From: a bacterium
Lineage (GTDB): Bacteria > UBA8248
DNA length: 64,000 nucleotides
Reading direction: 5' to 3'
Assembly: GCA_965213685.1 (NCBI GenBank)
Contig: CBDBZY010000003.1
Coordinates: 128,001 to 192,000, forward strand
Under the pieces are notes generated by a model. The model ran no database searches and was not told the DNA's origin. It was given only the letters and a program-made list of their open reading frames with translations. Positions within the stretch are counted from its first letter, which is position 1, and the number at the start of each line of letters is the position of its first letter. Positions 2,833-19,807 of this stretch are shown in pieces. The position numbers and the translations under genes were made by a program.

Positions 2833-3768
2833 TTGCTTGTCACAGGCGCGAGTGGATTGTTGGGCGGCAATTTGGCTTGGCAAGCCTCCTGGCAGTATCG
2901 CGTATTCGGGGTGTCGCGCTCCGCTTCTGTCCGTTTTTCCCCCTGGAGCGGGGTGCAGTGCGATCTTGCGGAAAAAACATCCACCCATCGTTGTTTGAGC
3001 CGGATTGCGCCCGACGCCATCGTTCATGCTGCGGCGATGACCGATGTGGATGCGTGCGAGAAAGACCCTGGGTTGGCGATGGAGCAGAACGTGCTCGTGT
3101 CGTCAACGATTGCGGAGTGGGCGCATGCGCACAAGTCGTTTCTCCTCTACATATCTACGGATGCCGTTTTTGACGGCACAGAGGGGGGATATGCGGAGGA
3201 TGCGCACCCGAAGCCTCTGAACGCATATGCGCGCACCAAACTCATGGCCGAGGAGGCTGTACGCTCGATTTGTCCGGAGAGCTTGATCCTGAGGACAAGC
3301 CTATACGGGTGGAATTCCCGAGACAGACTCGGTTTCGGGGAATGGGTGCTGCGCGGGTTGCTGGAAAAAGAAAGAAGGACGATGTTCACGGACGTATATT
3401 TTTCGCCTCTGTATGCGGGCGATTTGGCTCGCGTGATTCTGGATTTGATACCGATGCGGGCAACGGGCGTATATCATGCGGGCGCCTCCGATGGCTGCTC
3501 GAAGTATGCGTTTGCTCATCTGTTGGCCGAGGTTTTCGGCCTGGATACAGAGCCGATAGTGCCGGTTTCCATAGAAGATGTGTCGTTGGCTGCGCAGCGG
3601 CCGAGGGATACGACCTTGCGCATCGGGAAGCTGCGGAATCTGCTGGGCCGACCCATGCCGACGATGGCCGAAGGCGTGCGGAGATTCCACGATTCTTTGC
3701 GAACGGGATTCGTGAAATCCTTGAAGGGAGAATTGCCGCCCTGGCTGGTGGGTTGCGGCGGTGGGTAG
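2833..3768 (+). CDS. RmlD-like NDP-4-keto-6-deoxysugar reductase (SDR)
   Basis: VTGASGLLG, HAAAMTDVDACE, YISTDAVFDG and YARTK (YxxxK). The true start is probably GTG 2814 after GGAGG, with one extra A in the run at 2828-2831. Confidence 0.85.
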   Translation: MLVTGASGLLGGNLAWQASWQYRVFGVSRSASVRFSPWSGVQCDLAEKTSTHRCLSRIAPDAIVHAAAMTDVDACEKDPGLAMEQNVLVSSTIAEWAHAHKSFLLYISTDAVFDGTEGGYAEDAHPKPLNAYARTKLMAEEAVRSICPESLILRTSLYGWNSRDRLGFGEWVLRGLLEKERRTMFTDVYFSPLYAGDLARVILDLIPMRATGVYHAGASDGCSKYAFAHLLAEVFGLDTEPIVPVSIEDVSLAAQRPRDTTLRIGKLRNLLGRPMPTMAEGVRRFHDSLRTGFVKSLKGELPPWLVGCGGG

Positions 3769-4876
3769 GATTCTCTACGTATCGCAAGGATATTCCACGC
3801 ACGACAGGAGATTTTTGGAAGAGCTGGGCAAATCCGAACACGCCGTCTGGTTCTTGCCTTTTGCGGAGGGTGCCTATCGCCTGGAGTCTCGCCCGCTTCC
3901 CGACGGGATACAGGCGCTTCCCCCGCTACTGAAAAACAAGGAGACGCCGAGCGTTCCGGACTGGCCGGCTCTCGTTCTGCGCTTTCGAAGACGCCTGCTC
4001 GAGGCGGCACCGGATATCGTTCATGCGGGACCGGTGCAGACGGGCGCCTTCCTGGCCGCGCTTTGCAAGACAGCACCTTTGCTTGTCATGTCCTGGGGGT
4101 CGGATATTCTGGTTGTTCCGGACAAGAATCGGTGGATGCGCCGCCTGACGACGTTCACGTTGGCGCGCGCGGATATGGTTCTGGGAGATTGCGCGGCCGT
4201 CCGGGAGCGCGTGTCGTGCCTGTCTGGTTTGCGGGACGATCAGATAGTGTGTTTTCCGTGGGGGATCGACGTCCGGAAGTTTATGCCCGGGAAATCAACG
4301 ATGGGCCTGCGAAAAAGGCTGGGCTGGGAGGATCGCTTCATCGTCATTGCCACAAGGGGTTTCGAGGCGATTCACGCACCCCTCGTTTTCCTCGAGGCTA
4401 TGAAACGGGTGGTGGCCTCTCGCCCTGACGTGGGGGCGATCATGATCGGCGATGGCGGTTTGCGGTCCCGAGCGGAGGAGTTTATCGATAGGAACGATCT
4501 CGCGGGCCACGTGTATTGCCCCGGCCGGATACCGAACCCGAACATGGCCGACCATTTCCATGAGGCGGATTTGTATGTGAGCACCACGCTCAGTGACGGC
4601 ACATCGGTCAGCATGCTGGAGGCCATGGGTTGCGGTCTTCCCGTGGCCGTTGTAGATGGCTACGGGAATCGCGAATGGGTGGTGCCGGAGAAGAATGGAT
4701 GGTTGTATCCGACCGGAGACGCCGAAGCCCTGAGCCGGGTGATTCTGGACGCCTGTCCAAAAGAACCGGAACGAATGAAAATGTCGCATCGCAACAGGAT
4801 GCTCGTCGAGGAGAGGGCGGACTGGAGCAAAAATATCGGGCAACTGTTTGACATCTATGAACGTCTATCGGGTTAG
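3761..4876 (+). CDS. glycosyltransferase family 4
   Basis: WGSDIL, PWGID and DGTSVSMLEAMGCGLP (GT4-type acceptor region); overlaps the upstream stop. Confidence 0.85.
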   Translation: MGRILYVSQGYSTHDRRFLEELGKSEHAVWFLPFAEGAYRLESRPLPDGIQALPPLLKNKETPSVPDWPALVLRFRRRLLEAAPDIVHAGPVQTGAFLAALCKTAPLLVMSWGSDILVVPDKNRWMRRLTTFTLARADMVLGDCAAVRERVSCLSGLRDDQIVCFPWGIDVRKFMPGKSTMGLRKRLGWEDRFIVIATRGFEAIHAPLVFLEAMKRVVASRPDVGAIMIGDGGLRSRAEEFIDRNDLAGHVYCPGRIPNPNMADHFHEADLYVSTTLSDGTSVSMLEAMGCGLPVAVVDGYGNREWVVPEKNGWLYPTGDAEALSRVILDACPKEPERMKMSHRNRMLVEERADWSKNIGQLFDIYERLSG

Positions 4877-4894: not shown

Positions 4895-5974
4895 ATGCCG
4901 AATTTTCAGATCGGGGATCGGTGGATTGGCGATGCCCACCCCACGTATTTCATAGCGGATATCGCCGCCAACCATGACGGCAGCCTGGAGCGGGCGAAGC
5001 GGCTTGTTCGGCTGGCGAAGGAAGCGGGGGCCGACGCCGCCAAGTTTCAGCATTTCAGCGCACCGAAGATCGTGAGCGAATACGGGTTTGGCGCCATGCG
5101 GGGCAAGTTGTCCCACCAGGCGGGGTGGGAAAAGTCGGTGTATGAGGTGTATGAGGACGCCTCCGTCCCCTGGGAATGGACGGAGGAGCTGAAAACCTGC
5201 TGCGATGAGGCGGGCATTGATTTCTTTTCGTCTCCGTATGATTTCGGGGCGGTGGATTTTCTGGAGCCGTATGTGGATGTCTACAAAATCGGCTCAGGCG
5301 ATATCACCTGGCATGAGATGCTTCGCAAAATCGCAGGCAAGGGCAAACCCGTTATCCTGGCGACCGGCTCCTCGGACCTGGGAGACGTCCAGCGGGCGGT
5401 CCGGTGTATTCTGCAGAGCAACGGAGAATTGGCGCTTCTTCAATGCAACACGAACTACACGGGCTCGGAGGAGAATTTTCGGCACATCCACTTGAACGTG
5501 CTGCGGACGTTTCGTATGCTCTACCCCTCCGTGGTGGTCGGCCTCTCCGACCATACGCCAGCCCATGCGACAGTTTTGGGGGCGATCGCCCTGGGGGGCA
5601 GGGTCGTGGAGAAGCATTTTACGGACGATGTCAATCGAAAAGGCCCCGATCATGCGTTTTCGATGACGCCCGACGCCTGGTGCGAGATGGTCGATAGGGC
5701 ACGGGAGCTGGAGGCGGCTCTGGGGGGAACGGAAAAAGCGGTAGGCGAGAACGAGCGCGACACGGTGGTCGTGCAGAGAAGGTGCCTGCGCGCGCGGTCG
5801 GACCTGGAGGCGGGAACGATCGTCGCGCGCGAGCATATCGAGATTCTCAGGCCCGCCCCCCCGGACTCCATCGCTCCATATGATGTGGAGAAAATCATCG
5901 GGAAACGAATCAGCCGACCGATGCGGGCGGGCCAGGAGTTCACGTGGGATGTGGTGGTGGGGGCAGTGGCGTAA
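4895..5974 (+). CDS. N-acetylneuraminate-synthase family (NeuB/PseI-like) nonulosonic acid synthase with C-terminal SAF domain
   Basis: FIADIAANHDG, ADAAKFQ, YKIGSGD, GLSDHT, EKHFT and GPDH motifs, plus a SAF-like tail. Confidence 0.92.
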   Translation: MPNFQIGDRWIGDAHPTYFIADIAANHDGSLERAKRLVRLAKEAGADAAKFQHFSAPKIVSEYGFGAMRGKLSHQAGWEKSVYEVYEDASVPWEWTEELKTCCDEAGIDFFSSPYDFGAVDFLEPYVDVYKIGSGDITWHEMLRKIAGKGKPVILATGSSDLGDVQRAVRCILQSNGELALLQCNTNYTGSEENFRHIHLNVLRTFRMLYPSVVVGLSDHTPAHATVLGAIALGGRVVEKHFTDDVNRKGPDHAFSMTPDAWCEMVDRARELEAALGGTEKAVGENERDTVVVQRRCLRARSDLEAGTIVAREHIEILRPAPPDSIAPYDVEKIIGKRISRPMRAGQEFTWDVVVGAVA

Positions 5975-6036
5975 TTTGCATGTAAATCACTGCGCGCACA
6001 TGGGTGGACGCGGCGCGTTTGATTGTGCGGGGACGC

Positions 6037-7923
6037 ATGAAGCAGTTAATTCTGACGGGAACGGATTCCATACAGAGTGCGCACGAAGCGGAGCATCTGG
6101 GCCCCTGGTCGCTTTCCGACGCCCAGTTTTTTCAGTGGGGATGGGAGAAGCGCGGAATCGGGCGCGCCGTCCGGCACGAGGACATTCTGCCCGTCTCGAG
6201 AAGTCTGGAGAGGGTTTGTGAATTTTATATCGCCCGCTTGAGTTGTCGGCAGAACGAGAGGCATCGCCGTTCTTACTCCAATCGGTATTGGCGCATGTTG
6301 CTGGTGTCATGGCTGCTTCGATTGGTCATGTCTTCTTTCGAGCGGTTTTTGCGAATCAGGAAGCGGATACAAGGCGGGACGCCGTATTTGGTGTATCTTG
6401 CCCCGCGGCTAGAGAGTTTCCCGTCCCTTGCGACCTCCCATTTTAATGCGCTGATGCTCGCCGATCCGCTGAACCGGCTTATTTTCAGCCGTTTTCTCCG
6501 CGCGTATCAGCCGGAGGGGTGGATCATGCGGGACGGTCCCCCTGCCGCAAGGGATGGATTCTCCCTTGGGGGGGTGCCCCGAAATGGCTCCGCACCGGAC
6601 CACCTCGCCAAATTCCGGAAGGTGCAAAGAAAGCTGGAAATGTATCAGTGGGCCAACATCCTGGCCTCCAACCTGGGATGCGTCCAGTTTCAGAGGGTAT
6701 ATGGCCTGAATCCGTTGGACAGCGTGTCCATCGCTCTCCGGATGCTGTTCCGCAACAGAAGGCGTTGGAGAAGTGCCGCAAAATCATTTCATCCAGAGTC
6801 CGGCGGAGAGAAGGAAAACATCTCGAAGGATGATGCGATGGGGGAAATCCGGTCGATTCAAGGGATAGATGCGAAAGAAGCCGGGATTTTCCTGGAGGTT
6901 GTGGACGGCCTCGTGGAGGAGACGATGCCGAAATCGTTCACGGACAATTTTCGCGAAAACGAGAAGAAGGCGTTGAGGAGGGTGAAGGCGACAGCCCCTT
7001 GGACGGACACCGTCGTCTGCGGCGGCCCCGTTTTCGGCGATGACGACCGGGAGAAGTTTTATATAGCCAGCCTGTTGGAGAGACGCCCGATAAAGCTGGC
7101 GATCAACCAGCACGGAGGAAATTACGGCCTCAGCGAGGCGACGCCGTGGCAAAGTCTCGTGGAGTATGAAACGGCGGACAGGTTCATATCATGGGGGTGG
7201 AAGCGTCAATCGGATTATCCGGTGACCGCCGTGCCGGCCTCCTCTCCCCTGCTTTCCAAAATGAAGAAAAGCCGAAAGCGCAATTCCTCCATCGTTTTGG
7301 TGGCCCCCGGCCTGCCTGCGTATTCGGGATTGCTGCATACGGAACATTTCCCTGAGGATGTTGCGCAGCATATGGCGGACAAGGCGAATTTCGTGCGTCA
7401 CCTCAACGACGCGCCGCGCTCCGTCCTGCTGTATAGACCACATATAACGAGTGCTAGCAGGCGGAACGCTGCGCTCTACATGGAGAGAAGTCTTGGCGTA
7501 GAAATTCTCCAGGGGAAATTGGTGGCACCCCTCTCGGGGCGGCTGTCCCCTGCGCTATCGCAGTGCGGGGTTTGCGTTCTGCAGTATCCGGGAACGACGG
7601 CCGCGTTCACGATGGCGGCGGGCATACCGACCGTCTTGTTCTGGGACAAGGATGTTTGGCGCTTTTCCCGGCAGGGGCGGGCCGCTCTGGAAAAACTGTC
7701 CGCGGCGAACGTCTATCACGCATCCCCGGAGAGTGCGGCGCGGCACCTGAACGCCGTCTGGCCGGATGTGGATGCGTGGTGGGAGGATGACGCGACGCAG
7801 GCAGCGGTGGGCGAATTTGCGAATCGCTACTACCGGAGCAGCAAGAACTGGCGCTCGGAGTGGGCGGACCTGCTCTCCTCGGCGGATTCGGAATTGTGGC
7901 GGGACGGGTCGGGGGCGCGCTGA
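6037..7923 (+). CDS. LIC12162-family putative transferase (surface glycan)
   Basis: LGPW at the N-terminus, LNxxHxxxYSxRYWRMLLxxWL-like segment, QHGGNYG, FISWGW, and C-terminal H.SPESAARHLN.VW..VDAWW resemble the Leptospira LIC12162 family. Confidence 0.7.
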   Translation: MKQLILTGTDSIQSAHEAEHLGPWSLSDAQFFQWGWEKRGIGRAVRHEDILPVSRSLERVCEFYIARLSCRQNERHRRSYSNRYWRMLLVSWLLRLVMSSFERFLRIRKRIQGGTPYLVYLAPRLESFPSLATSHFNALMLADPLNRLIFSRFLRAYQPEGWIMRDGPPAARDGFSLGGVPRNGSAPDHLAKFRKVQRKLEMYQWANILASNLGCVQFQRVYGLNPLDSVSIALRMLFRNRRRWRSAAKSFHPESGGEKENISKDDAMGEIRSIQGIDAKEAGIFLEVVDGLVEETMPKSFTDNFRENEKKALRRVKATAPWTDTVVCGGPVFGDDDREKFYIASLLERRPIKLAINQHGGNYGLSEATPWQSLVEYETADRFISWGWKRQSDYPVTAVPASSPLLSKMKKSRKRNSSIVLVAPGLPAYSGLLHTEHFPEDVAQHMADKANFVRHLNDAPRSVLLYRPHITSASRRNAALYMERSLGVEILQGKLVAPLSGRLSPALSQCGVCVLQYPGTTAAFTMAAGIPTVLFWDKDVWRFSRQGRAALEKLSAANVYHASPESAARHLNAVWPDVDAWWEDDATQAAVGEFANRYYRSSKNWRSEWADLLSSADSELWRDGSGAR

Positions 7924-9257
7924 TGGCCAGGGTATCGCTTGCGACAGGGCTGTTCGGCGATTTCGATGTGGCGGACGAGCAGCTGGCCGGCGTGTATGGC
8001 CCCGCCGCACCGAAGTGCGCGGGCCTGGATGACGGGGAGCTGCGGGCGCGGATTCGGAACCCGATTGGCACCCCCCCTCTGCGGAAGATGGCCGGGGGTG
8101 CGAGGAGGGTGCTGATCGTCACGGACGACAATACGCGCCATACCCCTCTGCATCGCGTGCTCCCGCCCATCCTGGAGGAACTCGCCGAGGCGGGCGTTCC
8201 GGATGCGTCCATCCGCATCCTGATCGGGTTGGGGACGCATCGCGCCATGACGGAGTCGGAGATACGGCGCAAATTCGGCGCCGATTTGGTCGCGCGGTTC
8301 CGGATTCGGAACCATGAGTGGGAAAACCCCCGGGCGCTGATTTCCCTGGGGCCCAGCGGGCTGGGCTTTGACGTGCGGATGAACAGGGAAGTTCTGGAGA
8401 CGGATTTCCTCATATCCGTCGGCAGCATCATCCCGCACGCGACCGCAGGGTTCTCCGGCGGGGCGAAGAGCGTCATGCCCGGCATTTGCGGGGAATCGAC
8501 GATAGAGGCCACCCATTGGGCGGCACTGGATTATGAGATGAGCGAGATTCTCGGCAATTTCGACAACAAGGTGCGGGAGGCGTGCGTGCGCGTCGCCCGC
8601 CAGGCCGGCGTCCGCTTTATGGTCAACACGATCATGATGGACGACGAAAGAATGTATGACGCGGTGGCGGGCGACGTGGAGTCCGCCCATCAGGTGGGAT
8701 GCGACCGGTGCCTGGAATTGTACGGGGTGCCGGTGGACGGGAAGGCGGAGGTGGTCGTGGCGGAGGCCTGGCCGTCCGACATTGATCTGCGCCAGGCCAT
8801 CAAGGCCGTCTGTTCGGCGGATGTTGTCTGCCGGGACGGGGGGGTTATCATACTGGCCGCGGATTGCCGCGAGGGCGTCTCTCCCCAGTTCCCGAACTTC
8901 GAACGCTACGGATTCCGGGACCCGGACGCCCTGTATCGCGCGGTGGAGGCGGGCGAATTTCGGGAGAAACTCCTCGCCTACACGCTGGTCGCGATTGGCA
9001 GAATCATCTCGAAGAGGGTGAAGGGCGTGCTCGTTTCTCCCCATATTCAGCGCGAGGAGGCGAACCGCATGGGGTTCGGCTGGTCCGGCTCCCTGCAGGC
9101 TGCGGTGGATGACGCCCTGGGGATGGCGGGCGCGGACGCGAAAGTGATGGCGCTTCGGCAGGCGGGGCAGATCATGCCCCTGATTCCGGGAGCTTCGAAA
9201 AAATGCGCATCTGACGATAGGCAGGAAGAACGTCCGACGAGAGGGGCAAAGAGATGA
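7923..9257 (+). CDS. larA: LarA-family nickel-pincer-dependent alpha-hydroxyacid racemase/epimerase
   Basis: NPIGTPPL, DDNTRHTP, GLGTHR, PHATAGFSGGAKSVMPG, ATH, RQAIKA and GGVIILAADC.EG motifs; TGATG overlap with the upstream gene and ATGA overlap with the downstream gene. Confidence 0.88.
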   Translation: MARVSLATGLFGDFDVADEQLAGVYGPAAPKCAGLDDGELRARIRNPIGTPPLRKMAGGARRVLIVTDDNTRHTPLHRVLPPILEELAEAGVPDASIRILIGLGTHRAMTESEIRRKFGADLVARFRIRNHEWENPRALISLGPSGLGFDVRMNREVLETDFLISVGSIIPHATAGFSGGAKSVMPGICGESTIEATHWAALDYEMSEILGNFDNKVREACVRVARQAGVRFMVNTIMMDDERMYDAVAGDVESAHQVGCDRCLELYGVPVDGKAEVVVAEAWPSDIDLRQAIKAVCSADVVCRDGGVIILAADCREGVSPQFPNFERYGFRDPDALYRAVEAGEFREKLLAYTLVAIGRIISKRVKGVLVSPHIQREEANRMGFGWSGSLQAAVDDALGMAGADAKVMALRQAGQIMPLIPGASKKCASDDRQEERPTRGAKR

Positions 9258-10846
9258 TAGTCGCCGTCATACCGGCCAAACGGCACTCCAGTCGACTGGA
9301 GGACAAGAACCTCTTGGAGATCAACGGCGCCTCTCTCGTCGCCCATGCGGTGCGCTACGCGAAGAGGTTCCGGAGCATCGAGAGGATCGTCGTATCGACC
9401 GATTCGGAGGAGATTGCCGGCATTGGCAGGCGATGCGGCGCGGACGTTCATTTTCGGGGCGAGGAGCTGGCCGGCGAGGCGCCCCTCATTGAGGTGTATC
9501 GGGCCGTCGCGGACGCCCTGGGCGGGGAGGAGGTCTCTTTCGTCGTCGGGATTCAGCCCGACAATCCGACCCGGAAAAGCGACGTCGACAGCCTGCTGCG
9601 GTATGTCAGAGACAACCAGATAGACGATCTGTGCACGGTGGGCCGGGATGGAAAGCGGAACGGGGCGCTGCGCATCATGAGCAGGAGGGCCTTGACGCTG
9701 ACCCCGCCCTTGTATCCGTCTGCCGTTCAGGATGACTGCATCAACATCCATTCCGCCTTTGACCTCGCCATGTCCGCGCACGAGATGAGTCCGTATTCCA
9801 GGGAAATTTCCGTCGGAAGCAAAATGGTGGGCGCGGGCCATCCCGCCTTTCTCATCGCGGAGGCCGCCTGCAACCACATGTGCGACATGGGGCTGGCCAG
9901 GGAGATGATAGACTCGGCCGCGGAGGCCGGGGCGGACGCGATCAAGTTCCAGACCTACAAGGCGGAGCGCCTGACCCGCAAGGAGGCCACGACCTACTGG
10001 AAGGGGAAGCGGATACCGCAAATAGAGTATTATCGCGCACTGGATCGTTTTGGCGCGCCCGAGTACGAGGAACTTTTCGCCTATGCCCTGGAGCGGAATA
10101 TCGTCCCCTTCTCCACGCCGTTCGACGTCGAGAGCGCCACGATGCTGAACGATCTCGGCATGTCGCTTTTCAAGATAGCCTCGTGCGATCTGCCCGACAG
10201 CCGGTTGTTGCGGTGCGTGGCCGGTTTCGGCAAGCCCGTCATCCTTTCGACCGGCGGATCAACGGTGGAGGAGGTGGAGCGGGCCGTCTCCACGATTCTC
10301 GCCACGGGCAACCACCAGCTCATGCTCATGGCCTGCATGCTGAGCTATCCCACGACGGACGAGGACGCGAACCTCCTGCGCGTGCGCGCCTTGCGGGAGA
10401 AATATCCTGGCCTCATCATTGGCCTGTCCGATCACACGGAGCCGGACGGGCACATGGTCATCCCCGCCCTGAGCGTGGCTCTCGGCGCGAAAGTCATTGA
10501 AAAGCACTATACGCTGGATCGGGAATTGACGGGTTCGGGACACTTTTTTTCGATGAATCCGAAGGACTTGCGGAAGATGGTGGAAAACGTTCGCCTCGCG
10601 GAGACCGTCCTGGGCAGCGACGCGCTTGGGGTCGCCGAGCGCGAGCGCGCCGCCCGCGACAGCGCGCGGCGCAGCATCGTCGCCGAGCGGGACATTCAGC
10701 CCGGCGAGAGGATAGAGTCCTCCATGCTGGGCATGAAGCGGCCCGCCGACGGTCTTCCGGGCTGGATGATCGACGAGTTGATCGGCAAGGAGGCGCGGGT
10801 GCGCATCCAGGCGGACGAGGCGCTCTCCCTGGATATGGTGGAGTAG
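9254..10846 (+). CDS. fusion: cytidylyltransferase (NeuA-like) N-terminal domain + NeuB-like nonulosonate synthase + SAF
   Basis: The N-terminus has IPAKRHSSRLEDKN, VSTDS and QPDNPTR. From about aa 185 it has LIAEAACNH, ADAIKFQTY, FKIASCD, GLSDHT and EKHYT. Confidence 0.88.
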   Translation: MIVAVIPAKRHSSRLEDKNLLEINGASLVAHAVRYAKRFRSIERIVVSTDSEEIAGIGRRCGADVHFRGEELAGEAPLIEVYRAVADALGGEEVSFVVGIQPDNPTRKSDVDSLLRYVRDNQIDDLCTVGRDGKRNGALRIMSRRALTLTPPLYPSAVQDDCINIHSAFDLAMSAHEMSPYSREISVGSKMVGAGHPAFLIAEAACNHMCDMGLAREMIDSAAEAGADAIKFQTYKAERLTRKEATTYWKGKRIPQIEYYRALDRFGAPEYEELFAYALERNIVPFSTPFDVESATMLNDLGMSLFKIASCDLPDSRLLRCVAGFGKPVILSTGGSTVEEVERAVSTILATGNHQLMLMACMLSYPTTDEDANLLRVRALREKYPGLIIGLSDHTEPDGHMVIPALSVALGAKVIEKHYTLDRELTGSGHFFSMNPKDLRKMVENVRLAETVLGSDALGVAERERAARDSARRSIVAERDIQPGERIESSMLGMKRPADGLPGWMIDELIGKEARVRIQADEALSLDMVE

Positions 10847-10888
10847 CCGTGACTTTTGCGCTCCTGGCGGCGGGTGGGTGCATTCGGC

Positions 10889-12330
10889 ATGCCTAAAATC
10901 ACGGTCTACATTCCCACGTACAACTATGCGCATTTCCTGGACGCCGCGATCCGCAGCGTGTTGAACCAGACCCTGGACGATTGGGAGCTGATCGTCATTG
11001 ACGACGGCTCGACCGACAACACTCCGGAGGTCTTGGAGGCGTATCGGGACCATCCCCAAATCCGCATTCTGGAACAAGAGAACAAGGGCCTGAATTTCAC
11101 GAACAACATCGCCTTGCGCATCGCGCGGGGCGAATATCTGATGCGCCTGGACGCGGATGATTTTCTGGACGAGAACATTCTAAAGGTTCTCGCCGACGTC
11201 CTCGACGCGAAGCCGGACGTGGGCCTGGTGTTTCCGGATTATTATCGGGTGGACGAGGCCGGGGAGGTTATCGACCTCGTTCGCTGCCAGAAGATAGGGG
11301 AGGAGGTCGAGCTGCTGGACCTCCCGGCCCATGGCGCGTGCACCATGATCCGCAAGGAAGTGCTGGTCGAAATCGGGGGATATTTCGAGGAGTTCAACCG
11401 GCAGGACGGCTACGGCATGTGGCTGAAATTCATTCAGCGGCACCGCCCCTACAACGTGAACTTGCCCCTGTTTTACTATCGGCAGCATGGCGACAGCCTC
11501 TCGAAGTCGCGGAAGCTTATCCTGGAAACGCGCCGCAAGATCAAAAGGCGGGTCGTGGAGGAGATGAACCTCTATCGCCCACCCAGGGTTCTCGGGCTCG
11601 TTCCCGTCGTCGTGGACGCGGAATTCACCCTCGGGAATCCGTTCACGGAATTTCTGGGCAAACCGCTGCTGGAGCGGACGCTGGAGCAAATCCGGGAGGC
11701 GGGCACCATCGAGAGGATAGCCGTATCCTCCAACGATGCGGACGTGCTGGGGTATGTCGGCGGACTGGAGGGGGTGGACGCCATCACCCGGCCCCCGGCG
11801 TTGACGAGACGCACCTCCAGAATCTCGGACATAGCGTCCCACGCCTTGCGGACGATGGCCGGGGAGTGCGCGTATGTCCCCGCGACGCCGTTTGCATATG
11901 CCACATCAACACCCCCTTCCGGAGGGGGCGGCATATCGACAAGGCCGTGGACACCATGACCATTTTCGGCGTGGATTCGGTGATATCCATCGCCGAGGAC
12001 ACCTCTTTTTTCTACCATCACGGGAAGAACGGGCTCGTCCCCGTCAATGGTTCCCACCAGCGGACTGTGCGCCTGGAGAGAAAAGCGTTGTTCAAGGAAA
12101 ACGGGGCGATTTACCTCACCCGGTCGGATTGGATACAGGCGGGAAAATTCTTCGGAGAGAAGATAGGGCATATCACGATGCTTCCCGAGGAGAGCGTCAA
12201 GATTCGCTCGGAGTATGAATTCTGGCTGGCCGAGAAAATCGCGGCGGACTGGATGGGCATGGGGGGAGCCGACGGCTCTCCCGGCAAGAAAAATCCGCGA
12301 GGCCCGCTCCGCCAGAGCGCGAAAATCTAG
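10889..12330 (+). pseudogene. GT2 glycosyltransferase - cytidylyltransferase fusion, frameshifted near 11880 (possibly a sequencing error)
   Basis: GT2 motifs IPTYN, IDDGSTD and RLDADD in ORF 10856..11959. The CTP-transferase half GKPLL, VSSND continues in another frame as NTPFR...DSVISI...ENGAIY...ESVKI to the stop at 12330. Confidence 0.8.
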
Positions 12331-12340
12331 GGGAAGGGCG

Positions 12341-14254
12341 GTGTTCCAACCGAAGGCGTCTAGGATAGACGTCCTTTTTTTTGAGAGCTATTCATTCTCG
12401 AAAGTCATCCTGCATGCGAAGAGCATCAGGAACGCGAAGGTTGTCCTGATTTTTCGGGACACCTACCTCGGGGATCGGCACTACGAATCCGCAAGGCAAA
12501 AATCCGTCCGCAGATTGGTGAGTTGGATCAATCCCGGGGCACAGGTGCGCGCCATTCGGATGGAGGAAGTGGCGGCGCGCCTTTTTGGCGCGAGTGCGGA
12601 GGCGGTAGAGCTGCTCGAGGCGGAAAAAGACCGCATCCGGACAACGGCGTCATACAGGCTGCTGTATGGCGTCGTGCGCAGCGAACGCATCGTCAAATTC
12701 TATCAGATGTGGCTGGTGCGGAGGCTTCCCTACAGGTATGTGGGCGCCAAGCTTTGCGAGGTGCTGAGGGAGGAAAACGAAAACGTTGTCGCCGTTTCGG
12801 ATGGGAGCATGGAGTTTTGGAGAGGTGCGCATCCGCTGTTGCGCGGCCTCGGCGATGACGGCGTTTCGGCCTGGTCGCGTTTTGTGGCGAGGGCAACGAA
12901 CATGCTCCGGGCGCATGGCTGGCGCCTGGCGTCCCTGCTCCTGCCTGGCGTCCTTTTCTTGCGGCATATCAGAAATGGCCGGGTTTCCTCCGCATCCCCG
13001 CGCTACGCATTGGCCATGCCCGTGATGCACGGCGTTTTCGATGGGGGCAAGGTGCGCACCAGGGATATCCGAACCCAGCAGGACGACGCGTATTTGTATG
13101 GCCACGGGTTTCGGCCCGGGGAGATCGTTCATGTGTTTGGCGGTTGGAAGTTCCCGCCGAAGGTCAAAAAAGAATTTGCGGGGGAAATGCGAAGGCGAGG
13201 CTACCCCTATGTGGACAAAGACGGCTATGGCGTGAATCTGGCGCTACTTCGCTTTACCTTGGCGTGCACATGGCGCATCGCAAAGAGCCTCGCGCGCGCA
13301 CCGGGTGCCAGCTGGTTGTCGGCGACGATGGAGAAAGCGACCACAAAGGCACTGTATCACTATATCCTGAAACAATACGAGATGGAGAACGTGAAGTACG
13401 ACGTCGAGCTGGTTCGGGATGAATACAACGCAGGCCACGTCCTGGAATCCATCGTTGCGAATCGAGATGGCAGAAAGAGAATTGGCGTAGTGCATTCGGG
13501 AACCATCCACAGCAAACCGGAAAACAGCTTTGTTCACCTGGACAAGCTGATGGTTCTGTGCAGGCTGCATGCGAAGACCTTCTCCCCGCATTGGAAGGGC
13601 ATGGCGTTGGAGGAAGTGGGAAGACACACCATGGATTCCCTGCTCGCGGAATCCGGGAACCGGGGAAAAATCGTCGCGGACATACACCGCCTCCATGGGA
13701 AGCGGAGGTGGGTGATCACCATTCTTCTTCCCGGAGTCGGCGCCCACAACATGCTGGAGCAATGGGACAAGCTGTTCGAGGCTTTGGTGAATTTTCAGCA
13801 CCAAAGGCTGGATTGCCACGTATTCATCCGTTTCAGACGATTCGATGATGCGAAAAGCGCCAGGCATATCAGTCGATTTTTCGACCTCCCTGAGGTAGAT
13901 TCTCGGTTCATCATCGAGCATGAGAGGTGGAACACGCACCAGTTGATGGTTGGCAGCGATCTCGTGATCACGCCGAGCTCCTCCTGGGGAATCAATGAGG
14001 CTTCCGTTGTGGGGGCCCGGGTATTTACTTTTTTGTTTATCGGCATGGAGCCTTACAATTTCAGGGACTATGGATCGGATTTCGTTCTTCGGGACGCCAA
14101 GGACGTGCTCGACGCCTTTCAGGGACTGGAGTCCGGTTTCGAGGGGTTCGATTGTGCCTGGGAGCGCTTGCGGATGGATTCGGACTACCATTTCGACGGC
14201 AAAAACACCGGGCGCATGGCAAGCGTATTGAGACGGGAGATGCAAGCCTCTTGA
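12341..14254 (+). CDS. hypothetical surface-glycan protein, possible GT-B fold transferase
   Basis: Long ORF in the operon with GTG start after GGAAGG; the C-terminal SDLVITPSSSWGINEASVVG resembles a GT-B nucleotide-binding segment; family not recognised. Confidence 0.55.
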   Translation: MFQPKASRIDVLFFESYSFSKVILHAKSIRNAKVVLIFRDTYLGDRHYESARQKSVRRLVSWINPGAQVRAIRMEEVAARLFGASAEAVELLEAEKDRIRTTASYRLLYGVVRSERIVKFYQMWLVRRLPYRYVGAKLCEVLREENENVVAVSDGSMEFWRGAHPLLRGLGDDGVSAWSRFVARATNMLRAHGWRLASLLLPGVLFLRHIRNGRVSSASPRYALAMPVMHGVFDGGKVRTRDIRTQQDDAYLYGHGFRPGEIVHVFGGWKFPPKVKKEFAGEMRRRGYPYVDKDGYGVNLALLRFTLACTWRIAKSLARAPGASWLSATMEKATTKALYHYILKQYEMENVKYDVELVRDEYNAGHVLESIVANRDGRKRIGVVHSGTIHSKPENSFVHLDKLMVLCRLHAKTFSPHWKGMALEEVGRHTMDSLLAESGNRGKIVADIHRLHGKRRWVITILLPGVGAHNMLEQWDKLFEALVNFQHQRLDCHVFIRFRRFDDAKSARHISRFFDLPEVDSRFIIEHERWNTHQLMVGSDLVITPSSSWGINEASVVGARVFTFLFIGMEPYNFRDYGSDFVLRDAKDVLDAFQGLESGFEGFDCAWERLRMDSDYHFDGKNTGRMASVLRREMQAS

Positions 14255-14390
14255 GCGGGTTCGGGGGCGACGTGGGCGATTGCGCGGATGCCGGCAGGCC
14301 GCATGCGCAGCGGGGCAGCGACCGGAGGCGCTTCGTTTGCCCTGTGCCGTCTGGACGTGCGGGGAATCCCCTCCTCCGGTGAAAGAACAT

Positions 14391-16154
14391 ATGCGGAACG
14401 AAAAACTGAAACATATCCTCTACCTCGCCCGGAACGACAAGGGTTTCCTGCTCTTGTATTTTCTTATCCTTGTTTTGGCGACGATGTTCGAGAGCATGGG
14501 GCTGGGCATGCTGATGCCCATATTTCAATCCATGGGAGGAGCCGAGACGAACCACTTCTTTACGGCATACGCCATGTGGGGATTCGGATTGGTGGGCCTG
14601 GAGTATTCGTTCACGAACCTCATCCTCGTCTTCTCCGCCGCAACGCTTGTCAAATACGCCCTGGTCGCGGTTTCCATGCGCTGCGCGCGGTTGATCAGCT
14701 CGAGAGCCACATACGATCTGAGGGAGAGAGCCTTTCGGAACCTCATGAATCTTCCGCTCTCGTTTTTTTACTCCCAGAAGGTGGGCGACCTTGTCGCCGT
14801 CCAGTTTACCTCTGCGAACAATGCCGGCGTGATTCTGGAATATGCGATGCTCATCATGAGCGGCATTTTTTTCTGCACCCTGTATTTGGCGATGAATTTG
14901 ATGGTGTCCTTCTGGCTGACCGTCATCGTCGTTGGCCTGTCGGCCGTCTCGTATCTTTTCCTGCTCCCGCGTTTTCAAAGCGCATATGGAGGAGGGAAGA
15001 AGGAATCGCAAGGCATGGAGAACATCAATTCCTATCTCTATGACGTCTTCTCCGGAATCAAAACGGTAAAGGTGTTCGGAAACGCCAGGCACCACGTCGA
15101 TAATTACGGACGCCACGCGGACGATTATCGTCGGGTCTGCATCCAGATCATGGACAACAGGATTATCGCGTCATTGTTTCACGAGCCGCTGTTTTTTATT
15201 TTCATGGTTCTTTGTCTGGTTCTGTCCGTTCAATTTCTGGAGCTCCCCTTCGTCACCCTTGCCGTGTTCCTCGTCATCTTCTTGCAGGTCATTCCCAAGC
15301 TGAAGGTGATATGCAACCAGTGGGTCAAGGTCAACGAACTCATCCCGCACCTGTTGCTCATCCTCGAATGCGGGGAAAGGAAGCGCAAGACGTATTTGCC
15401 GGAGGGATGCGCTCCCCTTGGCGTCCTGGAGAAGGGAGTGCGGTTTGAGGACGTCTCGTTTTCGTATCCCGGGGTGCAAAACAGCACGCTGAGCGGGATA
15501 AGCGTCTTGGTCGAGCAAGGCAAGACAACGGCCCTCGTCGGCTCCTCCGGAGGCGGGAAAACCACGCTTGTCGATCTGTTCCTGCGTCTTCACGACCCCT
15601 CGCGCGGGGTCATCTATGTGGATGACGTGGATTTGCGGGATGTTCCCCTGGCGGAATGGCGAAGTCGAATCGGGGTGGTGGAGCAGGAGCCGCATCTTTT
15701 TCACGATACGGTGTATAACAACATCCGCTATGGAAATCTCGACGCGGACGAGGGGCAAGTGCGCAAGGCCGCGGAAACCGCATGTGCCCATGCATACATA
15801 GAAAAGCTGCCGGAAGGATACGAGACGATCATCGGCAACCGGGGGTTCAGGTTGTCCGGAGGCCAAAAACAGCGTCTGGCACTCGCAAGAGCCCTGGTCC
15901 GCTCTCCCCAGATACTGGTTCTGGACGAGGCGACGAGTTCGCTCGACAGCGAGTCCGAGCATCTCATCCAGACGGCTGTGCAGGAGCTCAGCGGGCGGAT
16001 GACCATCCTGATCGTCGCCCATCGTCTTTCTACGATAAGGAATGCGGACAGGATTTTCGTTCTCGATGGCGGCCGAGTCGTTCAGGAGGGCGACCATGCG
16101 GCTCTCATCGGGGGGGAAGGCCGATACAGGGAATTCATGGAATTGCAGTCTTGA
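14391..16154 (+). CDS. ABC transporter permease/ATPase (MsbA/PglK-like glycan flippase)
   Basis: N-terminal TM domain; Walker A GSSGGGKTT, signature LSGGQKQR, Walker B ILVLDEATSSLD, and IVAHRLST. Confidence 0.9.
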   Translation: MRNEKLKHILYLARNDKGFLLLYFLILVLATMFESMGLGMLMPIFQSMGGAETNHFFTAYAMWGFGLVGLEYSFTNLILVFSAATLVKYALVAVSMRCARLISSRATYDLRERAFRNLMNLPLSFFYSQKVGDLVAVQFTSANNAGVILEYAMLIMSGIFFCTLYLAMNLMVSFWLTVIVVGLSAVSYLFLLPRFQSAYGGGKKESQGMENINSYLYDVFSGIKTVKVFGNARHHVDNYGRHADDYRRVCIQIMDNRIIASLFHEPLFFIFMVLCLVLSVQFLELPFVTLAVFLVIFLQVIPKLKVICNQWVKVNELIPHLLLILECGERKRKTYLPEGCAPLGVLEKGVRFEDVSFSYPGVQNSTLSGISVLVEQGKTTALVGSSGGGKTTLVDLFLRLHDPSRGVIYVDDVDLRDVPLAEWRSRIGVVEQEPHLFHDTVYNNIRYGNLDADEGQVRKAAETACAHAYIEKLPEGYETIIGNRGFRLSGGQKQRLALARALVRSPQILVLDEATSSLDSESEHLIQTAVQELSGRMTILIVAHRLSTIRNADRIFVLDGGRVVQEGDHAALIGGEGRYREFMELQS

Positions 16155-16248: not shown

Positions 16249-18207
16249 ATGGAAGTCGTGGAACGCATCAGCTTGGAAGAAATCGCGAACGTGCTGAAGA
16301 GGCACTGGTTGTGGTTTGTCGTTTGTCCCGCCGTATTGATGGCGCTTTTGTCCGCCGTCAGCTTTTCCCGAACGAAAGAATATCGATCCACAGCGACCCT
16401 GCTCTTCAGTCGCTCGCCACTGGTGGGAGGGCGCGGGGATGGAAATCCGGCAGCCGATGTGCAGGCGGCCGTGGGGATTCTACCGGGACTTGCGCCTTCC
16501 AGGCAGGTGATGCAGAAGCTTAAGCGTGGCGCCGCTTCCCGCAACATGTCGGCCGATGGTTTGTGGAACAAGGTTCTGCATGCAGCGAAAGGCAAGCAGG
16601 CAAACATCATTCGCGTGTCCGCCACGACGCTGTCTCCCGCATTGTCAAGAGATTTGGCGAATGCCGCCGCCGACTTGGCAGTAAGGAACTACCAGCAGGA
16701 TTATGGTAGGTTTGCCCCTTTGGAAGAGAGAAAAGAGCTGGAACAGGAGCGGGATATCGCGCAGAAGCGCCTGGATGACGTCAAAGAGAAGCTGGTGAAA
16801 TTCGGTTTACTCCCATCCGGCGAGCGGGAGATAAATGATAGAATCAATACGTTGCGGCTGCGCCGGAGGCAATTACTCGGAAGGGATGCGCATATCTTTC
16901 ACGAAATGCAGAATATCAAGCATCTTTATAAAGACGCCGGCAAGTTGCGGGAAAGGACTGTGAAACTGCTTGCGGGGAAAGACAAAGACAGCGACATGTG
17001 GACCCTGAGCCTGGATGTCAACAAGCTCGACGCCTTGCTAGCGTCTCATCGTGCCCTGGTAGCAGATATGTTGGAAGCGGAAGGCGAGTTGGCCGCCCTG
17101 TTTAAAAGGCAAGGGGCAGGCAGTGCCTTGAACGTGGATGCGGCGGCGAAAACTCCTGCGGTTGTAGCCGGTGCCCAGACTCCTTCCGGGCTGGAAAAAA
17201 TTCAAGCCGCGAAAGAATCGTTGGAGAATGAAAAAAAGGAAATCTTGAGCGCCTTGCCCGATCTTGGGGGCAGGTTGCAGGTTTCCATGGCGAGGTTGAA
17301 ATCGCTGCAGACGCAGATGAGCGACATGGAGAAAGCGAGACGGGGCAGGGCGGCCTCCGGGAGTGCGCAAACTCTCCCGGGCGCGCCGGGTAAAAACCCG
17401 GTCGCGCATGACGGGAAGGGGGACAACGATCTATACGGCGCCGCGATGGCAAAAATGATGGATGAGAAGCTGCGCTTGCAGGAGATGGAGGGGGAAAAAG
17501 CCTGGTATCGTGACAGACTCGCCAGGATTGATGCGAAATTGTCGGAGCAAAGGGAGAAATTCCGGGAGCATCGCGTCAAGGATTTGCGCGAGAAAATTTC
17601 CGGGATGCGGGATGAAATAAAAAACGTCGAGTCCAGAGTTTTCGCGCAGCAGACGAGAATCGGCGAGCTGGTTCTTGCAAGGCCGGACGCACTTGGGATG
17701 TTGTCGCCGGACCTGAGCGCATTGAGAATTTCCCCCGGAGTCGGCGTCTCTGTAGACGAAAAAGAAGAAATGAAGCCGAGCGATTTCCTGGTGAACGTCT
17801 TGCTGAAAAAATGGATATTCTATACTAAAATACTTGAGAGAATGGAGCAAATGAGGGAAACAAGGGCCCTCCTGGTTGTCAAGCTGGAAGAAGTATGGAA
17901 TAGCCTGCGCGAGCAATGGGCCCGCAAGGGGCGTTTGCTGGCTCAGCGCGACAAGCTAGAGAAGGAAGTTTCCGTGGCGCAGAGGGATTATAAAGTCGCT
18001 TCCCGGGAATATCGCAGGGCGATAAGGCGCGGCGCGAGTTTGAGGGTTATCGTTCCCGCGACACTGCCCGCTGGCCCGGCTCCCATCTATTGGAAAGCCT
18101 CGGCGACGCTGGGCCTTGTCGCTGGCCTGTTTCTCGCCATATGCGCGGTGCTGTTTCTGGAATTCCGGAAAGCGGCTTCTGCGCGAAAAGAACCGGATGG
18201 CGCGTAG
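16249..18207 (+). CDS. Wzz/GumC-like polysaccharide co-polymerase (no kinase domain)
   Basis: ISLEEIANVLKRHW + TM + YRSTATL at the N-terminus, a long coiled coil, then Pro-rich VIVPATLPAGP before the C-terminal TM. Confidence 0.75.
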   Translation: MEVVERISLEEIANVLKRHWLWFVVCPAVLMALLSAVSFSRTKEYRSTATLLFSRSPLVGGRGDGNPAADVQAAVGILPGLAPSRQVMQKLKRGAASRNMSADGLWNKVLHAAKGKQANIIRVSATTLSPALSRDLANAAADLAVRNYQQDYGRFAPLEERKELEQERDIAQKRLDDVKEKLVKFGLLPSGEREINDRINTLRLRRRQLLGRDAHIFHEMQNIKHLYKDAGKLRERTVKLLAGKDKDSDMWTLSLDVNKLDALLASHRALVADMLEAEGELAALFKRQGAGSALNVDAAAKTPAVVAGAQTPSGLEKIQAAKESLENEKKEILSALPDLGGRLQVSMARLKSLQTQMSDMEKARRGRAASGSAQTLPGAPGKNPVAHDGKGDNDLYGAAMAKMMDEKLRLQEMEGEKAWYRDRLARIDAKLSEQREKFREHRVKDLREKISGMRDEIKNVESRVFAQQTRIGELVLARPDALGMLSPDLSALRISPGVGVSVDEKEEMKPSDFLVNVLLKKWIFYTKILERMEQMRETRALLVVKLEEVWNSLREQWARKGRLLAQRDKLEKEVSVAQRDYKVASREYRRAIRRGASLRVIVPATLPAGPAPIYWKASATLGLVAGLFLAICAVLFLEFRKAASARKEPDGA

Positions 18208-18310: not shown

Positions 18311-19807
18311 ATGAGCGAATCGGCGGCGGCCCAGAATAATCCGGATATGCCTGACGAACGAGGGATGGACGCCCCTCCCGCCCGGAGAGAAAAGAGGTTT
18401 TCTCCTTTCTGGCTCACCAATGCGGTCATCTCTCTCCACGCGGTCCACCTCCTCATTCCCCGGGCGTTCGTCCCCTACTTTCCGGGACATCTGCTGGGTC
18501 CGTATAAAGTCTACATGCTCCTTTTCTGCTTGCTGTGCGTTGCATGGGCGATAGAGGCGGTTCGGTACGGGGTGAGAAAGCCGACGCCGGCGTTCGGGGT
18601 CTTCACCCTCTGGTTCTGGGCGATATTCTGGGGCGGAGTGCTTCATGCCTACATCGCAGGCGATCCGGTCAAAACGCTCGTGCCTGTGTATCAGCCCCTC
18701 GTTGACGCCGTCCCGTATATCGATGGGATGCTCGTATGGTATCTGATTTGGAACAACGGGTGGGACAGGAGCGAGTTTGAAAGCGTCCTGAAAGTCGTGT
18801 TCTGGGTCGTCCTGGTTGTGGGCGTCGAGTGCATCCTGTTTTTTTATCTGGCGATTCCCAACCCCTGGTCGCTGGATATCAAAGGGCGAGTTTTCATCAG
18901 CATGTTCCCGCGGCACATTGTCGACCCCGGCCGCCTCGGATTGATATTGACGGGCGTTGGCCTCTACCTGTTCCTGAGAAAAAGGGGGGGCTGGTTGTAT
19001 CTTTGTGCGTCATTGTCCGGAGTGCTGATGCTTTTCTCCACGATGAGGCGCTCCCCGCTGTTCGGTTTGCTGCTGGGCGCATGGCTCTTCTGCGCGTTCT
19101 TGTTGAAATGCAGGAGGCGATCGCGCGGCAAAAAGATGCGCCTCACCCGGCCCTTCCGTTTTCTCGCGCCCCTGGTTGTCGTTTTGGTGTTTTCCGCCGG
19201 GGCGCTGCTGGTGAGCGGGAAGGTGAGAGGAGGAACAAGAGCAGAATTTGCGGGGATAAGTAGTTTCGAGCATGGCGTCAAGGCGCGGGGCTTCAACTAC
19301 ACGCGCGCGGCGGATGTGTTTCTTGCGCGGCCTTTTCTCGGGGGTGGCCCCCGGCAGGGAGTTTTGTATGCGTATTCCGCGGATGTGCCGCCCGTGGTGA
19401 CGGAATATTTTTTCGGGGATGTCCGCCAGGAGTTTCAGCTCGGAGGAATGGCGCGGTTCAATGTGCTTCGGCATGACCCGAGGAGCGGCGAAGTGAGTAC
19501 GATACACAGCACCCCGATGAACCTCATCGCGGACTTGGGACTGCTGGGACTGGTCTTGCTGATTGTCATGGCCGCGACGGGCGTGCGGTATTTCTGGGAT
19601 GTCATGCTCTTGCGGCCTGCTGAGAATTCATTTGCCGTGGTCATGCCTTTCGCCGCCATGTTTTGCACCGCCGTCGCCTTGCTCATCAGCGTTTCCTCCA
19701 CGTCGAAATTTTATCCGTTCTGGCTGTTCGCCATCCTCCTGTGTTTTATCCGCTACCTGTATCGTGAGATACTAGCGACTTCCGCTTCGGCTGCGCCGGA
19801 GGGGTAA
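18311..19807 (+). CDS. O-antigen ligase / Wzy-like polymerase family membrane protein
   Basis: About 11-12 TM segments, STMRRS, R...RPFLGGG and IHSTPMNLIADLGLLG (Wzy_C-type H motif). Confidence 0.75.
   Translation: MSESAAAQNNPDMPDERGMDAPPARREKRFSPFWLTNAVISLHAVHLLIPRAFVPYFPGHLLGPYKVYMLLFCLLCVAWAIEAVRYGVRKPTPAFGVFTLWFWAIFWGGVLHAYIAGDPVKTLVPVYQPLVDAVPYIDGMLVWYLIWNNGWDRSEFESVLKVVFWVVLVVGVECILFFYLAIPNPWSLDIKGRVFISMFPRHIVDPGRLGLILTGVGLYLFLRKRGGWLYLCASLSGVLMLFSTMRRSPLFGLLLGAWLFCAFLLKCRRRSRGKKMRLTRPFRFLAPLVVVLVFSAGALLVSGKVRGGTRAEFAGISSFEHGVKARGFNYTRAADVFLARPFLGGGPRQGVLYAYSADVPPVVTEYFFGDVRQEFQLGGMARFNVLRHDPRSGEVSTIHSTPMNLIADLGLLGLVLLIVMAATGVRYFWDVMLLRPAENSFAVVMPFAAMFCTAVALLISVSSTSKFYPFWLFAILLCFIRYLYREILATSASAAPEG

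Follow-up and report, generated by a model that had tools for sequence, protein, structure and literature searches.

LarA, the lactate racemase of Lactiplantibacillus plantarum (Protein Data Bank (PDB) 5HUQ/6C1W), and the broad-spectrum LarA of Isosphaera pallida (9EIA/9EID) represent a family of enzymes whose cofactor is nickel-pincer nucleotide (NPN), and both depend on the genes larB, larC, and larE. As stated in a 2026 paper (PMC13524815), the LarA-family reactions reported are all racemizations or epimerizations of hydroxy acids, and in the substrate complexes described for the I. pallida enzyme (PMC11851776) the carboxylate is held by Arg, Gln, and Lys together with two catalytic His residues, and the 2-hydroxyl by His107 and Tyr294, with the C-terminal domain reading the C-alpha substituent. 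Four positions, namely F175, F176, W358, and T359, are described as predicting specificity, with the published signatures being F,F,W,E/Q for lactate racemases (LAR), E,V,A,H for gluconate epimerases (GntE), Y,F,H/Q,T for 2-hydroxyglutarate racemases (HGR), and H/Q plus K at the last two positions for malate racemases (MAR) (PMC11770544). With the GntE D-gluconate 2-epimerases there is already a case of a LarA homologue that works on C2 of a polyhydroxy sugar acid (PMC11770544); the main text of the LarA superfamily papers considered here reports no glycan-locus context for these epimerases or for any other member of the family. Nonulosonates are made by three canonical routes: NeuC-NeuB-NeuA for N-acetylneuraminic acid (Neu5Ac), LegB/C/H/G/I/F for legionaminic acid, and PseB/C/H/G/I/F for pseudaminic acid. 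To our knowledge, no described nonulosonate pathway contains an alpha-hydroxy-acid intermediate or a LarA enzyme. Among papers that mention LarA, the nickel-pincer cofactor, and sialic acid together, none draws a link between them, the only one that combines lactate racemase with nonulosonic or neuraminic acids treats the topics separately, and the main text of the LarA superfamily papers contains none of the terms neuramin, sialic, glycosyl, polysaccharide, cytidylyl, or NeuB (supplementary tables may list gene contexts). Here we describe a LarA-family gene that lies inside a nonulosonate-type glycan locus on contig CBDBZY010000003.1 of assembly GCA_965213685.1, positions 128,001 to 192,000, a stretch of 64,000 nucleotides to which we refer in its entirety as the window. 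We infer the activity, substrate class, and role of its product, and argue that this protein is probably a nickel-pincer enzyme that epimerizes a polar alpha-hydroxy acid at C-alpha and is devoted to an ulosonic-acid glycan of a non-canonical kind.

The gene runs on the + strand from an ATG at 7923 to a TGA at 9257, with 444 codons and no internal stop, and its product, a predicted NPN alpha-hydroxy-acid epimerase/racemase homologue of 444 aa, matches the Pfam families Lar_N (5e-55, 186 bits) and LarA_C (3.4e-9, 37 bits). It is wedged between two genes of the same strand. Upstream lies an LIC12162-family transferase, a candidate nonulosonate transferase of 639 aa (6004-7923; TIGR04331, 272 bits against a cut-off of 225), whose TGA (7921-7923) shares one base with the LarA ATG (7923-7925) in a TGATG stop/start overlap (7921-7925, 'cTGATGg'). 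Downstream lies a fusion of 530 aa (9254-10846) that joins a short (~190 aa) cytidylyltransferase-like domain to a NeuB-type synthase condensing phosphoenolpyruvate (PEP) and a SAF domain (Pfam CTP_transf_3, NeuB, and SAF); this protein, which falls below the NCBIfam NeuB and PseI equivalog cut-offs and is here called the NeuB2-type synthase, begins with an ATG (9254-9256) that overlaps the LarA TGA (9255-9257) in an ATGA start/stop overlap (9254-9257). The initial annotation had claimed both overlaps, the identity of both neighbors, the preservation of the LarA catalytic and cofactor pattern, and two substitutions, PHAT for PHFF and RQ for YQ; direct reading of the sequence bears out the overlaps base by base, the profile matches bear out the neighbors, and the alignment described below bears out every motif and both substitutions. 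The same 1-nt and 4-nt overlaps recur in a relative, locus L008 (open reading frames (ORFs) 8094-10001, 10001-11296, and 11293-12885).

A scan of one genome per species yielded 33 loci that carry the clade of LarA homologues to which the window protein belongs, with partners identified by tblastn with the window proteins; the loci come from Nitrospinota, Cytophagia, Candidatus Anammoxibacter, Pirellulales, Planctomycetia, Verrucomicrobiota, Deltaproteobacteria, Desulfobacterales, Thermodesulfobacteriota, Candidatus Zymogenus, and Candidatus Omnitrophota. A NeuB2-type synthase (50-85% identity to the window protein) is found on the LarA strand within 10 kb in 30/33 loci, and so, again in 30/33, is a homologue (46-72% identity) of a further window gene that the initial annotation had not mentioned, a fusion of a GT2 glycosyltransferase with a full-length NeuA-like (cytidylyltransferase-like) domain. 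The partner genes mostly adjoin the LarA gene, and in 28/30 loci the synthase and the cytidylyltransferase form one fused protein. The misses are as follows: the contig of L020 is only 3.2 kb long; that of L038 begins inside the LarA gene, with the GT2 gene present; in L007 the synthase is 8.4 kb off, and the locus stops directly after it; and L037 holds a sister with 41% identity and no glycan gene. Gene order varies by phylum, being LIC12162-LarA-NeuA/NeuB-GT2, NeuA/NeuB-LarA-GT2, or GT2-LarA-...-NeuA/NeuB, and all-against-all ORF clustering finds only the LarA, NeuB2-type, and GT2-fusion families to be common to 16-18 lineages. The LIC12162-family gene directly upstream of LarA is a feature of 14/33 loci, all of them of the window's group, plus L047.

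Co-distribution in the window's phylum agrees with this synteny. Among 51 species genomes, in which kin genomes do not count as independent, 25 have a Lar_N match, and the clade LarA and the NeuB2-type synthase occur together in 22, the synthase only in 1, the LarA only in 0, and neither in 28. The carriers are the window's own genome (G000), 19/22 congeners, G027, and G056, and a search for the fused synthase gives full-length matches of at least 63% identity in precisely these 22 LarA carriers and in G051. Three congeners that are 95-99% complete have neither gene. In G027, a distance of 11.5 kb separates the LarA gene from the synthase and GT2 fusion downstream of it, and the LarA gene is itself flanked by an LIC12162-family gene and a homologue of a 679-aa protein of the window. 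As controls, seven LarA loci outside the clade (from G023, G062, and G065; 29-36% identity; one contig is only 5.3 kb) have homologues of NeuB, NeuA, GT2, or LIC12162 within ~9 kb in 0/7 cases. Outside the phylum, 201 sampled genomes of Omnitrophota contain the clade LarA or the fused synthase only in the starting genome, G009, which agrees with the co-distribution but at n=1 is uninformative, together with ten other LarA matches of 29-33% identity; NeuB homologues are present in 108/201 of them, the best having 47% identity and being unfused.

The cofactor genes are also in place. In the window's genome (7.97 Mb, 71 contigs, 94% complete), larE, larB, and larC are adjacent on another contig, C29 (25479-28269), and all score above their curated cut-offs (LarE 340 bits against 150, LarB 288 against 175, and LarC 464 against 22), while the window LarA is the only Lar_N match. 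Complete single-contig relatives have LarC in 5/5 cases, with the glycan-locus gene being the only Lar_N match in 5/5, and carriers from other phyla have LarC in 7/10, which makes 12/15 of the other carrier genomes tested. It should be mentioned that the window's genome is large beside its 22 congeners (2.9-4.6 Mb) and may hold more than one genome despite a marker contamination of 3.7%. Two checks proposed with the initial annotation, namely that the clade be consistently adjacent to neuA/neuB and that the genome possess larB, larC, and larE, thus came out in its favor, and its description of the gene as hard-wired into a glycan operon and anabolic is well supported by comparative genomics, that is, by synteny, co-distribution, controls, and cofactor genes.

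Residue equivalences, taken from the alignment to the lactate racemase of L. plantarum (5HUQ/6C1W), show an intact catalytic apparatus. The motif D69-N-T-R72 corresponds to R75 of that enzyme, G-T-H106 to H108, P-H172-A173-T174...S178-G-G-A-K182 to H174, F175, F176, and K184, H198 to H200, R290-Q291...K294 to Y294, Q295, and K298, and Y353/T354 to W358/T359. The cofactor set is thus kept (R72, the NPN-tethering K182, and the nickel ligand H198), as are the two catalytic His residues (H106 and H172) and the carboxylate clamp Q291/K294. An AlphaFold2 model computed from an alignment of 78 sequences (pLDDT 95, pTM 0.92) has the two-domain fold of the L. plantarum and I. pallida enzymes, with Foldseek TM scores of 0.85-0.89 against 5HUQ/9EID, and shares with them the tethering Lys, the nickel-ligand His, both catalytic His residues, and the Arg/Gln/Lys clamp; the window genome likewise has the three genes on which those enzymes depend. 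The window homologue differs from them in its identity of only 28-29%, in the replacement of F175/F176/W358 by A/T/Y and of Y294 by R, and in standing in a glycan cassette rather than beside larBCE or lactate metabolism.

The pocket is where the departure lies: it consists of A173, T174, R290, Y353, and T354 in the window clade versus F, F, Y, W, and T in lactate racemase. At position 290 the contrast is best described as R versus W/Y, because the nearest sister LarA homologues carry W there, not Y. Its A,T,Y,T differs from every one of the signatures given above for LAR, GntE, HGR, and MAR, agreeing only at its last position with that of HGR, and the protein reaches the curated cut-off of no LarA subfamily in NCBIfam: malate racemase LarAH6 (NF052593), the top-scoring model, gives 292 bits against 500; lactate racemase LarA (NF033504), 271 against 460; LarAH10, 258 against 540; malate racemase LarAH5 (NF052595), 222 against 462; and the sole hexonate-epimerase model, 73 against 500. 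Neither by profile score nor by pocket signature does it fall among the lactate racemases, malate racemases, GntE, or HGR. The best-scoring characterized relative is the malate racemase Mar2/LarAH6 (6D6Z, 7S91; NF052593), with 185 bits in the PDB search and the top Foldseek E-value, from which the clade is set apart by Y and T where malate racemases have H/Q and K at the positions of W358/T359 (PMC11770544) and by its extra positive charge at position 290. The GntE signature E,V,A,H is likewise not that of the clade, whose nearest sisters are not characterized enzymes. Judged by these sequence features, the window enzyme stands outside the types described for lactate, malate, 2-hydroxyglutarate, and gluconate. 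Since the substituent pocket is smaller-residued, polar, cationic, and invariant in the clade, it would fit a larger, polyhydroxylated, or anionic acid.

The clade itself is discrete. Among representatives at 50% identity, scores against the window protein step down from 489 bits at 56% identity, through 390 bits at 45%, to 328 bits or less. In a maximum-likelihood tree of 78 sequences (IQ-TREE quick search, with support from the Shimodaira-Hasegawa-like approximate likelihood ratio test (SH-aLRT) only), all 16/16 rows with A-T-R-Y-T at the five pocket positions fall in one clade with SH-aLRT 100 and a stem of 0.49, and two more R290 sequences extend it to a group of 18 with support 99; the remaining rows have W at 290, except three with Y or I. 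The 12-residue signature R72 H106 H172 A173 T174 K182 H198 R290 Q291 K294 Y353 T354 is complete in 116/117 full-length close homologues obtained by a word-based search. The ten nearest outgroup representatives scanned are also below every LarA-subfamily cut-off, so the clade sits in an uncharacterized part of the LarA superfamily. Among viral contigs, 11 pattern matches to the clade LarA contained 0 relatives.

We next consider what could feed the synthase, for which the window's genus, with 23 genomes, 13 of them of high quality and several single-contig, provides the clearest view. Epimerase_2, the family that holds NeuC, LegG, and WecB, is found in 0/23 of these genomes versus 11/14 well-known control genomes, and the GlcNAc 2-epimerase family in 0/23. 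Because the genus lacks both NeuC/LegG-type and GlcNAc 2-epimerases, the synthase would not be fed by the known Neu5Ac or legionaminic routes. Strong PseB-type proteins (~330 bits) occur in only 2/23 genomes (G000 and G040), the others scoring at most 59 bits, and on this gene content the pseudaminic route is also excluded in most species of the genus (PseC, PseH, and PseG were not searched). NeuB2 is the sole NeuB homologue (E <= 1e-20) in 17/19 cassette-carrying congeners. The locus therefore resembles canonical ones in joining a NeuB-type synthase, a cytidylyltransferase, and candidate nonulosonate transferases (LIC12162, or BFO_1060-like in other phyla) in a surface-polysaccharide locus, and differs from them in a synthase below the NeuB/PseI cut-offs and a genus without NeuC/LegG-type genes. 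A NeuB clade that the known Neu, Leg, and Pse routes could not feed makes a new ulosonic acid or a new substituent likely. Nucleotide-sugar 6-dehydrogenases are present in 23/23 genomes of the genus, none of them beside the cassette.

In three loci elsewhere (L034, 1948-8599, as well as L030 and L033), the genes directly upstream of the cassette encode a HexNAc(A) 6-dehydrogenase, a WbpE-like 3-aminotransferase, and a GFO/IDH/MocA oxidoreductase, together with a hexapeptide acetyltransferase and an Epimerase_2 protein, a set that resembles the WbpA/B/E/D/I route to 2,3-diacetamido-mannuronic acid. We considered this compound as the NeuB2 substrate and set it aside on chemical grounds, since its C3 nitrogen would occupy the position of the oxygen that closes the pyranose ring.

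In the mechanism that we propose, the enzyme would invert C-alpha (C2) of a free alpha-hydroxy carboxylic acid by proton-coupled hydride transfer to the NPN cofactor, with H106/H172 predicted to act as acid/base, K182 to tether the cofactor, H198 to ligate nickel, and R72/Q291/K294 to hold the carboxylate. The horizontally mobile cassette of LarA homologue, NeuB2-type synthase, and GT2/NeuA-like fusion would make an ulosonic-acid unit outside the canonical set and install it in a surface polysaccharide. With the carboxylate clamp complete and both His residues kept, the substrate would be expected to be a free alpha-hydroxy acid that bears a hydrogen on C-alpha. No canonical nonulosonate intermediate fits this description, C2 of a 2-ulosonic acid being without hydrogen, so that the LarA enzyme would bring a step absent from the described pathways. 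The co-distribution with NeuB2 and the missing canonical precursor epimerases move some weight to a link with this second NeuB of the window, and we lean slightly, if tentatively, toward a uronic-type aldehydo-acid as the substrate, because no other class combines the features of an alpha-hydroxy acid with those of a possible substrate for PEP condensation; alternatively, the enzyme would act on the far carboxyl end of the dicarboxylic ulosonic acid made from it. The LarA enzyme would in that case set one stereocentre of the NeuB2-made sugar, which would explain the coupling of the LarA and NeuB2 clades, the absence of a canonical feed, a pocket that is polar and cationic, and perhaps also the AsnB-type amidotransferase nearby. 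In its most specific and more speculative form, the proposal is that a free hexuronic-type acid is epimerized beside its carboxylate and condensed by NeuB2 with PEP to a nine-carbon dicarboxylic 'nonulosaric' acid, which would be CMP-activated and built into a surface polysaccharide. The epimerized center would be hexuronate C5, equivalent to C8 in the product; activation would fall to the fused short cytidylyltransferase, and in some lineages the adjacent AsnB-type enzyme would amidate the extra carboxyl.

A number of observations weigh against this proposal, in whole or in its uronic form. The peptide patterns that retrieved the 33 loci include PHAT and LRQ, so invariance of the signature in those loci is partly by construction; the count of 116/117 is independent of these patterns, and locus neighbors were not used in selection. 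G051, a metagenome-assembled genome (MAG) of 510 contigs and 91% completeness, has the synthase and GT2 fusion on an 8.3-kb contig and no LarA homologue that could be found. LarC was not found in 3/15 carrier MAGs, and five carrier genomes of other phyla have 1-6 Lar_N matches each, which means that NPN is not kept there for the clade enzyme alone. The sister L037, on a Planctomycetota MAG contig of 13.8 kb, has the signature G-T-R-Y-T, stands alone on its strand, and has no glycan genes; one of its neighbors is without a PDB relative and the other resembles sugar ABC permeases, a weak hint, and the R290 feature may be older than the recruitment into glycan loci. As regards the uronic form, a NeuC-like Epimerase_2 is present in the loci of Omnitrophota and Planctomycetia, there is no evident enzyme for releasing a uronic acid from its nucleotide, and we know of no nine-carbon dicarboxylic ulosonic acid.

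The alternative that survives best, possible though doubtful, is that the enzyme supplies a substituent: a small free hydroxy acid (glycerate-, lactate-, or malate-like) would be racemized for an N- or O-acyl group, or for an aglycone or acceptor of the GT2 enzyme, and the required enantiomer would go onto the nonulosonate or a neighboring sugar, where methyltransferases encoded nearby may then methylate it. N-glyceroyl and 2,3-di-O-methylglyceroyl pseudaminic acids do exist, with genes stated to be unidentified (PMC5378307), and some LarA homologues prefer glycerate (PMC11770544). The flanks of the loci are also in keeping with such decoration: of the 129 non-core ORFs in 13 loci, S-adenosylmethionine (SAM) methyltransferases (14) and radical SAM proteins (10, of which 8 have a B12-binding domain) make up the largest families, followed by short-chain dehydrogenase/reductase (SDR) epimerases (7), GT2 (7), Polysacc_synt_2 (5), Epimerase_2 (5), and hexapeptide transferases (5), and some cassettes enclose genes for a deacetylase and a formyltransferase-like protein. 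However, neither the all-against-all ORF clustering nor these family counts show an acyl-activating enzyme or acyltransferase conserved with the clade. Substituent supply also leaves unexplained why the clade tracks one type of synthase and what feeds that synthase in a genus without NeuC/LegG-type, GlcNAc 2-epimerase, and (mostly) PseB-type genes, and a pocket that has lost two Phe and a Trp and gained an Arg suggests a substrate larger or more anionic than lactate.

That the protein is an ordinary lactate, malate, or central hydroxy-acid racemase merely located in a glycan locus is unlikely. Public records do call close homologues 'nickel-dependent lactate racemase', and the top profiles are indeed the malate and lactate racemase models, but the scores are far under both cut-offs and the pocket residues that define these racemases are replaced. 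Nor would a bystander be expected to recur over many phyla with the same same-strand, mostly abutting pair of partners in shuffled order, or to share its presence and absence with the synthase when non-clade LarA loci with such neighbors number 0/7. Slightly more improbable still is a substrate other than a free alpha-hydroxy acid, whether a hydroxyacyl amide already attached to the nonulosonate or the ulosonic acid itself, which would undergo net redox or isomerase chemistry. Hydride shuttling between sugars is reported for NPN enzymes with a different fold (PMC13524815), and R290 could conceivably bind the carboxylate of a large sugar; against this, both catalytic His residues and the R72/Q291/K294 clamp are invariant, the clamp sits on the substrate's own carboxylate in the solved complexes described (PMC11851776), and C2 of a 2-ulosonic acid offers no hydrogen. 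A non-catalytic or decaying LarA relic, to which only the apparent frameshift of the adjacent GT2 fusion in the window lends color, is scarcely credible given an intact ORF, all 12 functional residues in 116/117 homologues, a very confident model (pLDDT 95), an intact cofactor operon, and the absence of that frameshift from the contigs of three runs.

The GT2 fusion deserves a closer description, for the enzyme that we regard as a probable epimerase of a polar hydroxy acid has it as a partner as constant as the synthase. In the window it spans 10856-12258 (+), with a likely start at the ATG at 10889, and is split in frame near 11881; tblastn with full-length relatives places the frame switch at ~11880-11890. 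Two letters at 11881 are absent from the contigs of three public runs (one study, word depth ~17-21), and dropping them restores the in-frame reading seen in homologues, so that the split probably arose during assembly and is otherwise no more than a variant. In relatives, the fusion has ~455-470 aa, with Glycos_transf_2 followed by CTP_transf_3 (36-40 bits, cut-off 22.6). The NeuA-like domain has a profile match to residues 6-225 of the CMP-Neu5Ac synthetase 1EYR, and because its N-terminal nucleotide-binding loop is not conserved between lineages, we doubt that it is an active cytidylyltransferase. The top PDB match of the GT2 domain is chondroitin polymerase (150 bits), the matched part of which is presumably its glucuronyl-transferring domain, a point that we do not use as evidence. 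Clusters of the ESM Atlas near the corresponding gene of L008 (12925-14322) contain GT2 and CTP_transf_3 fusions of ~430-440 aa from records that are 97-100% viral (Uroviricota). As for the shorter cytidylyltransferase domain fused to NeuB2 (9254-9830, ~190 aa), it keeps the IPAK..S.RL..KN and QPDxPxR motifs and has N-I-H where NeuA has the metal motif D-I-D.

Other features of the loci vary with lineage. B12-binding radical SAM proteins and class-I SAM methyltransferases lie within or beside the cassette in L023, L024, L030, L031, L033, and L036, which suggests C- or O-methylated sugars; a radical SAM protein of the B12 type or a methyltransferase was rejected as a universal partner, the B12 type being present in only 6/35 sequences searched. 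In Omnitrophota and Planctomycetia, proteins of ~610 aa related to the BFO_1060 glycosyltransferase family follow the synthase. In the window, the cassette is followed on the + strand by a 679-aa protein of no known family (12215-14254), which has no Pfam or NCBIfam match and no BLAST similarity to LIC12162 or BFO_1060-like proteins; its homologue of ~675 aa (30% identity) lies directly after the LarA homologue in G027 (L047; homologous stretch at 10504-12387, protein at 10516-12543). Next come genes of polysaccharide export and assembly assigned by Pfam, namely an ABC exporter (14280-16154, +), a Wzz-like protein (16249-18207, +), and a Wzy_C/O-antigen-ligase-like protein (18311-19807, +), and then, on the - strand, a GT4 glycosyltransferase (19772-21022) and the AsnB-type amidotransferase (21024-23519), a gene that follows the cassette in 12 related loci. 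Upstream of the LIC12162-family gene lies a pseudaminic-type set on the + strand, assigned by Pfam/NCBIfam and comprising PseB (776-1786), PseF-like (1958-2734), RmlD-like (2833-3768), GT4 (3761-4876), and NeuB1 (4895-5974), which looks recently added because a PseB-type gene is found in only one other genome of the genus (G040).

This clade of LarA homologues points to an undescribed nickel-dependent step in cell-surface glycan synthesis, and the work also flags an uncharacterized NeuB clade, that of the NeuB2 type. If the nonulosaric version of the proposal were true, glycan biosynthesis would gain its first nickel-dependent step and its first LarA-family enzyme, and acidic sugars a new class. 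If the proposed role is correct, a phylum-hopping clade would extend the nickel-pincer cofactor to an anabolic function at the cell surface and make the glycans concerned nickel-dependent, and in the window's genus this glycan role would explain why a three-gene cofactor pathway is kept with a single LarA homologue.

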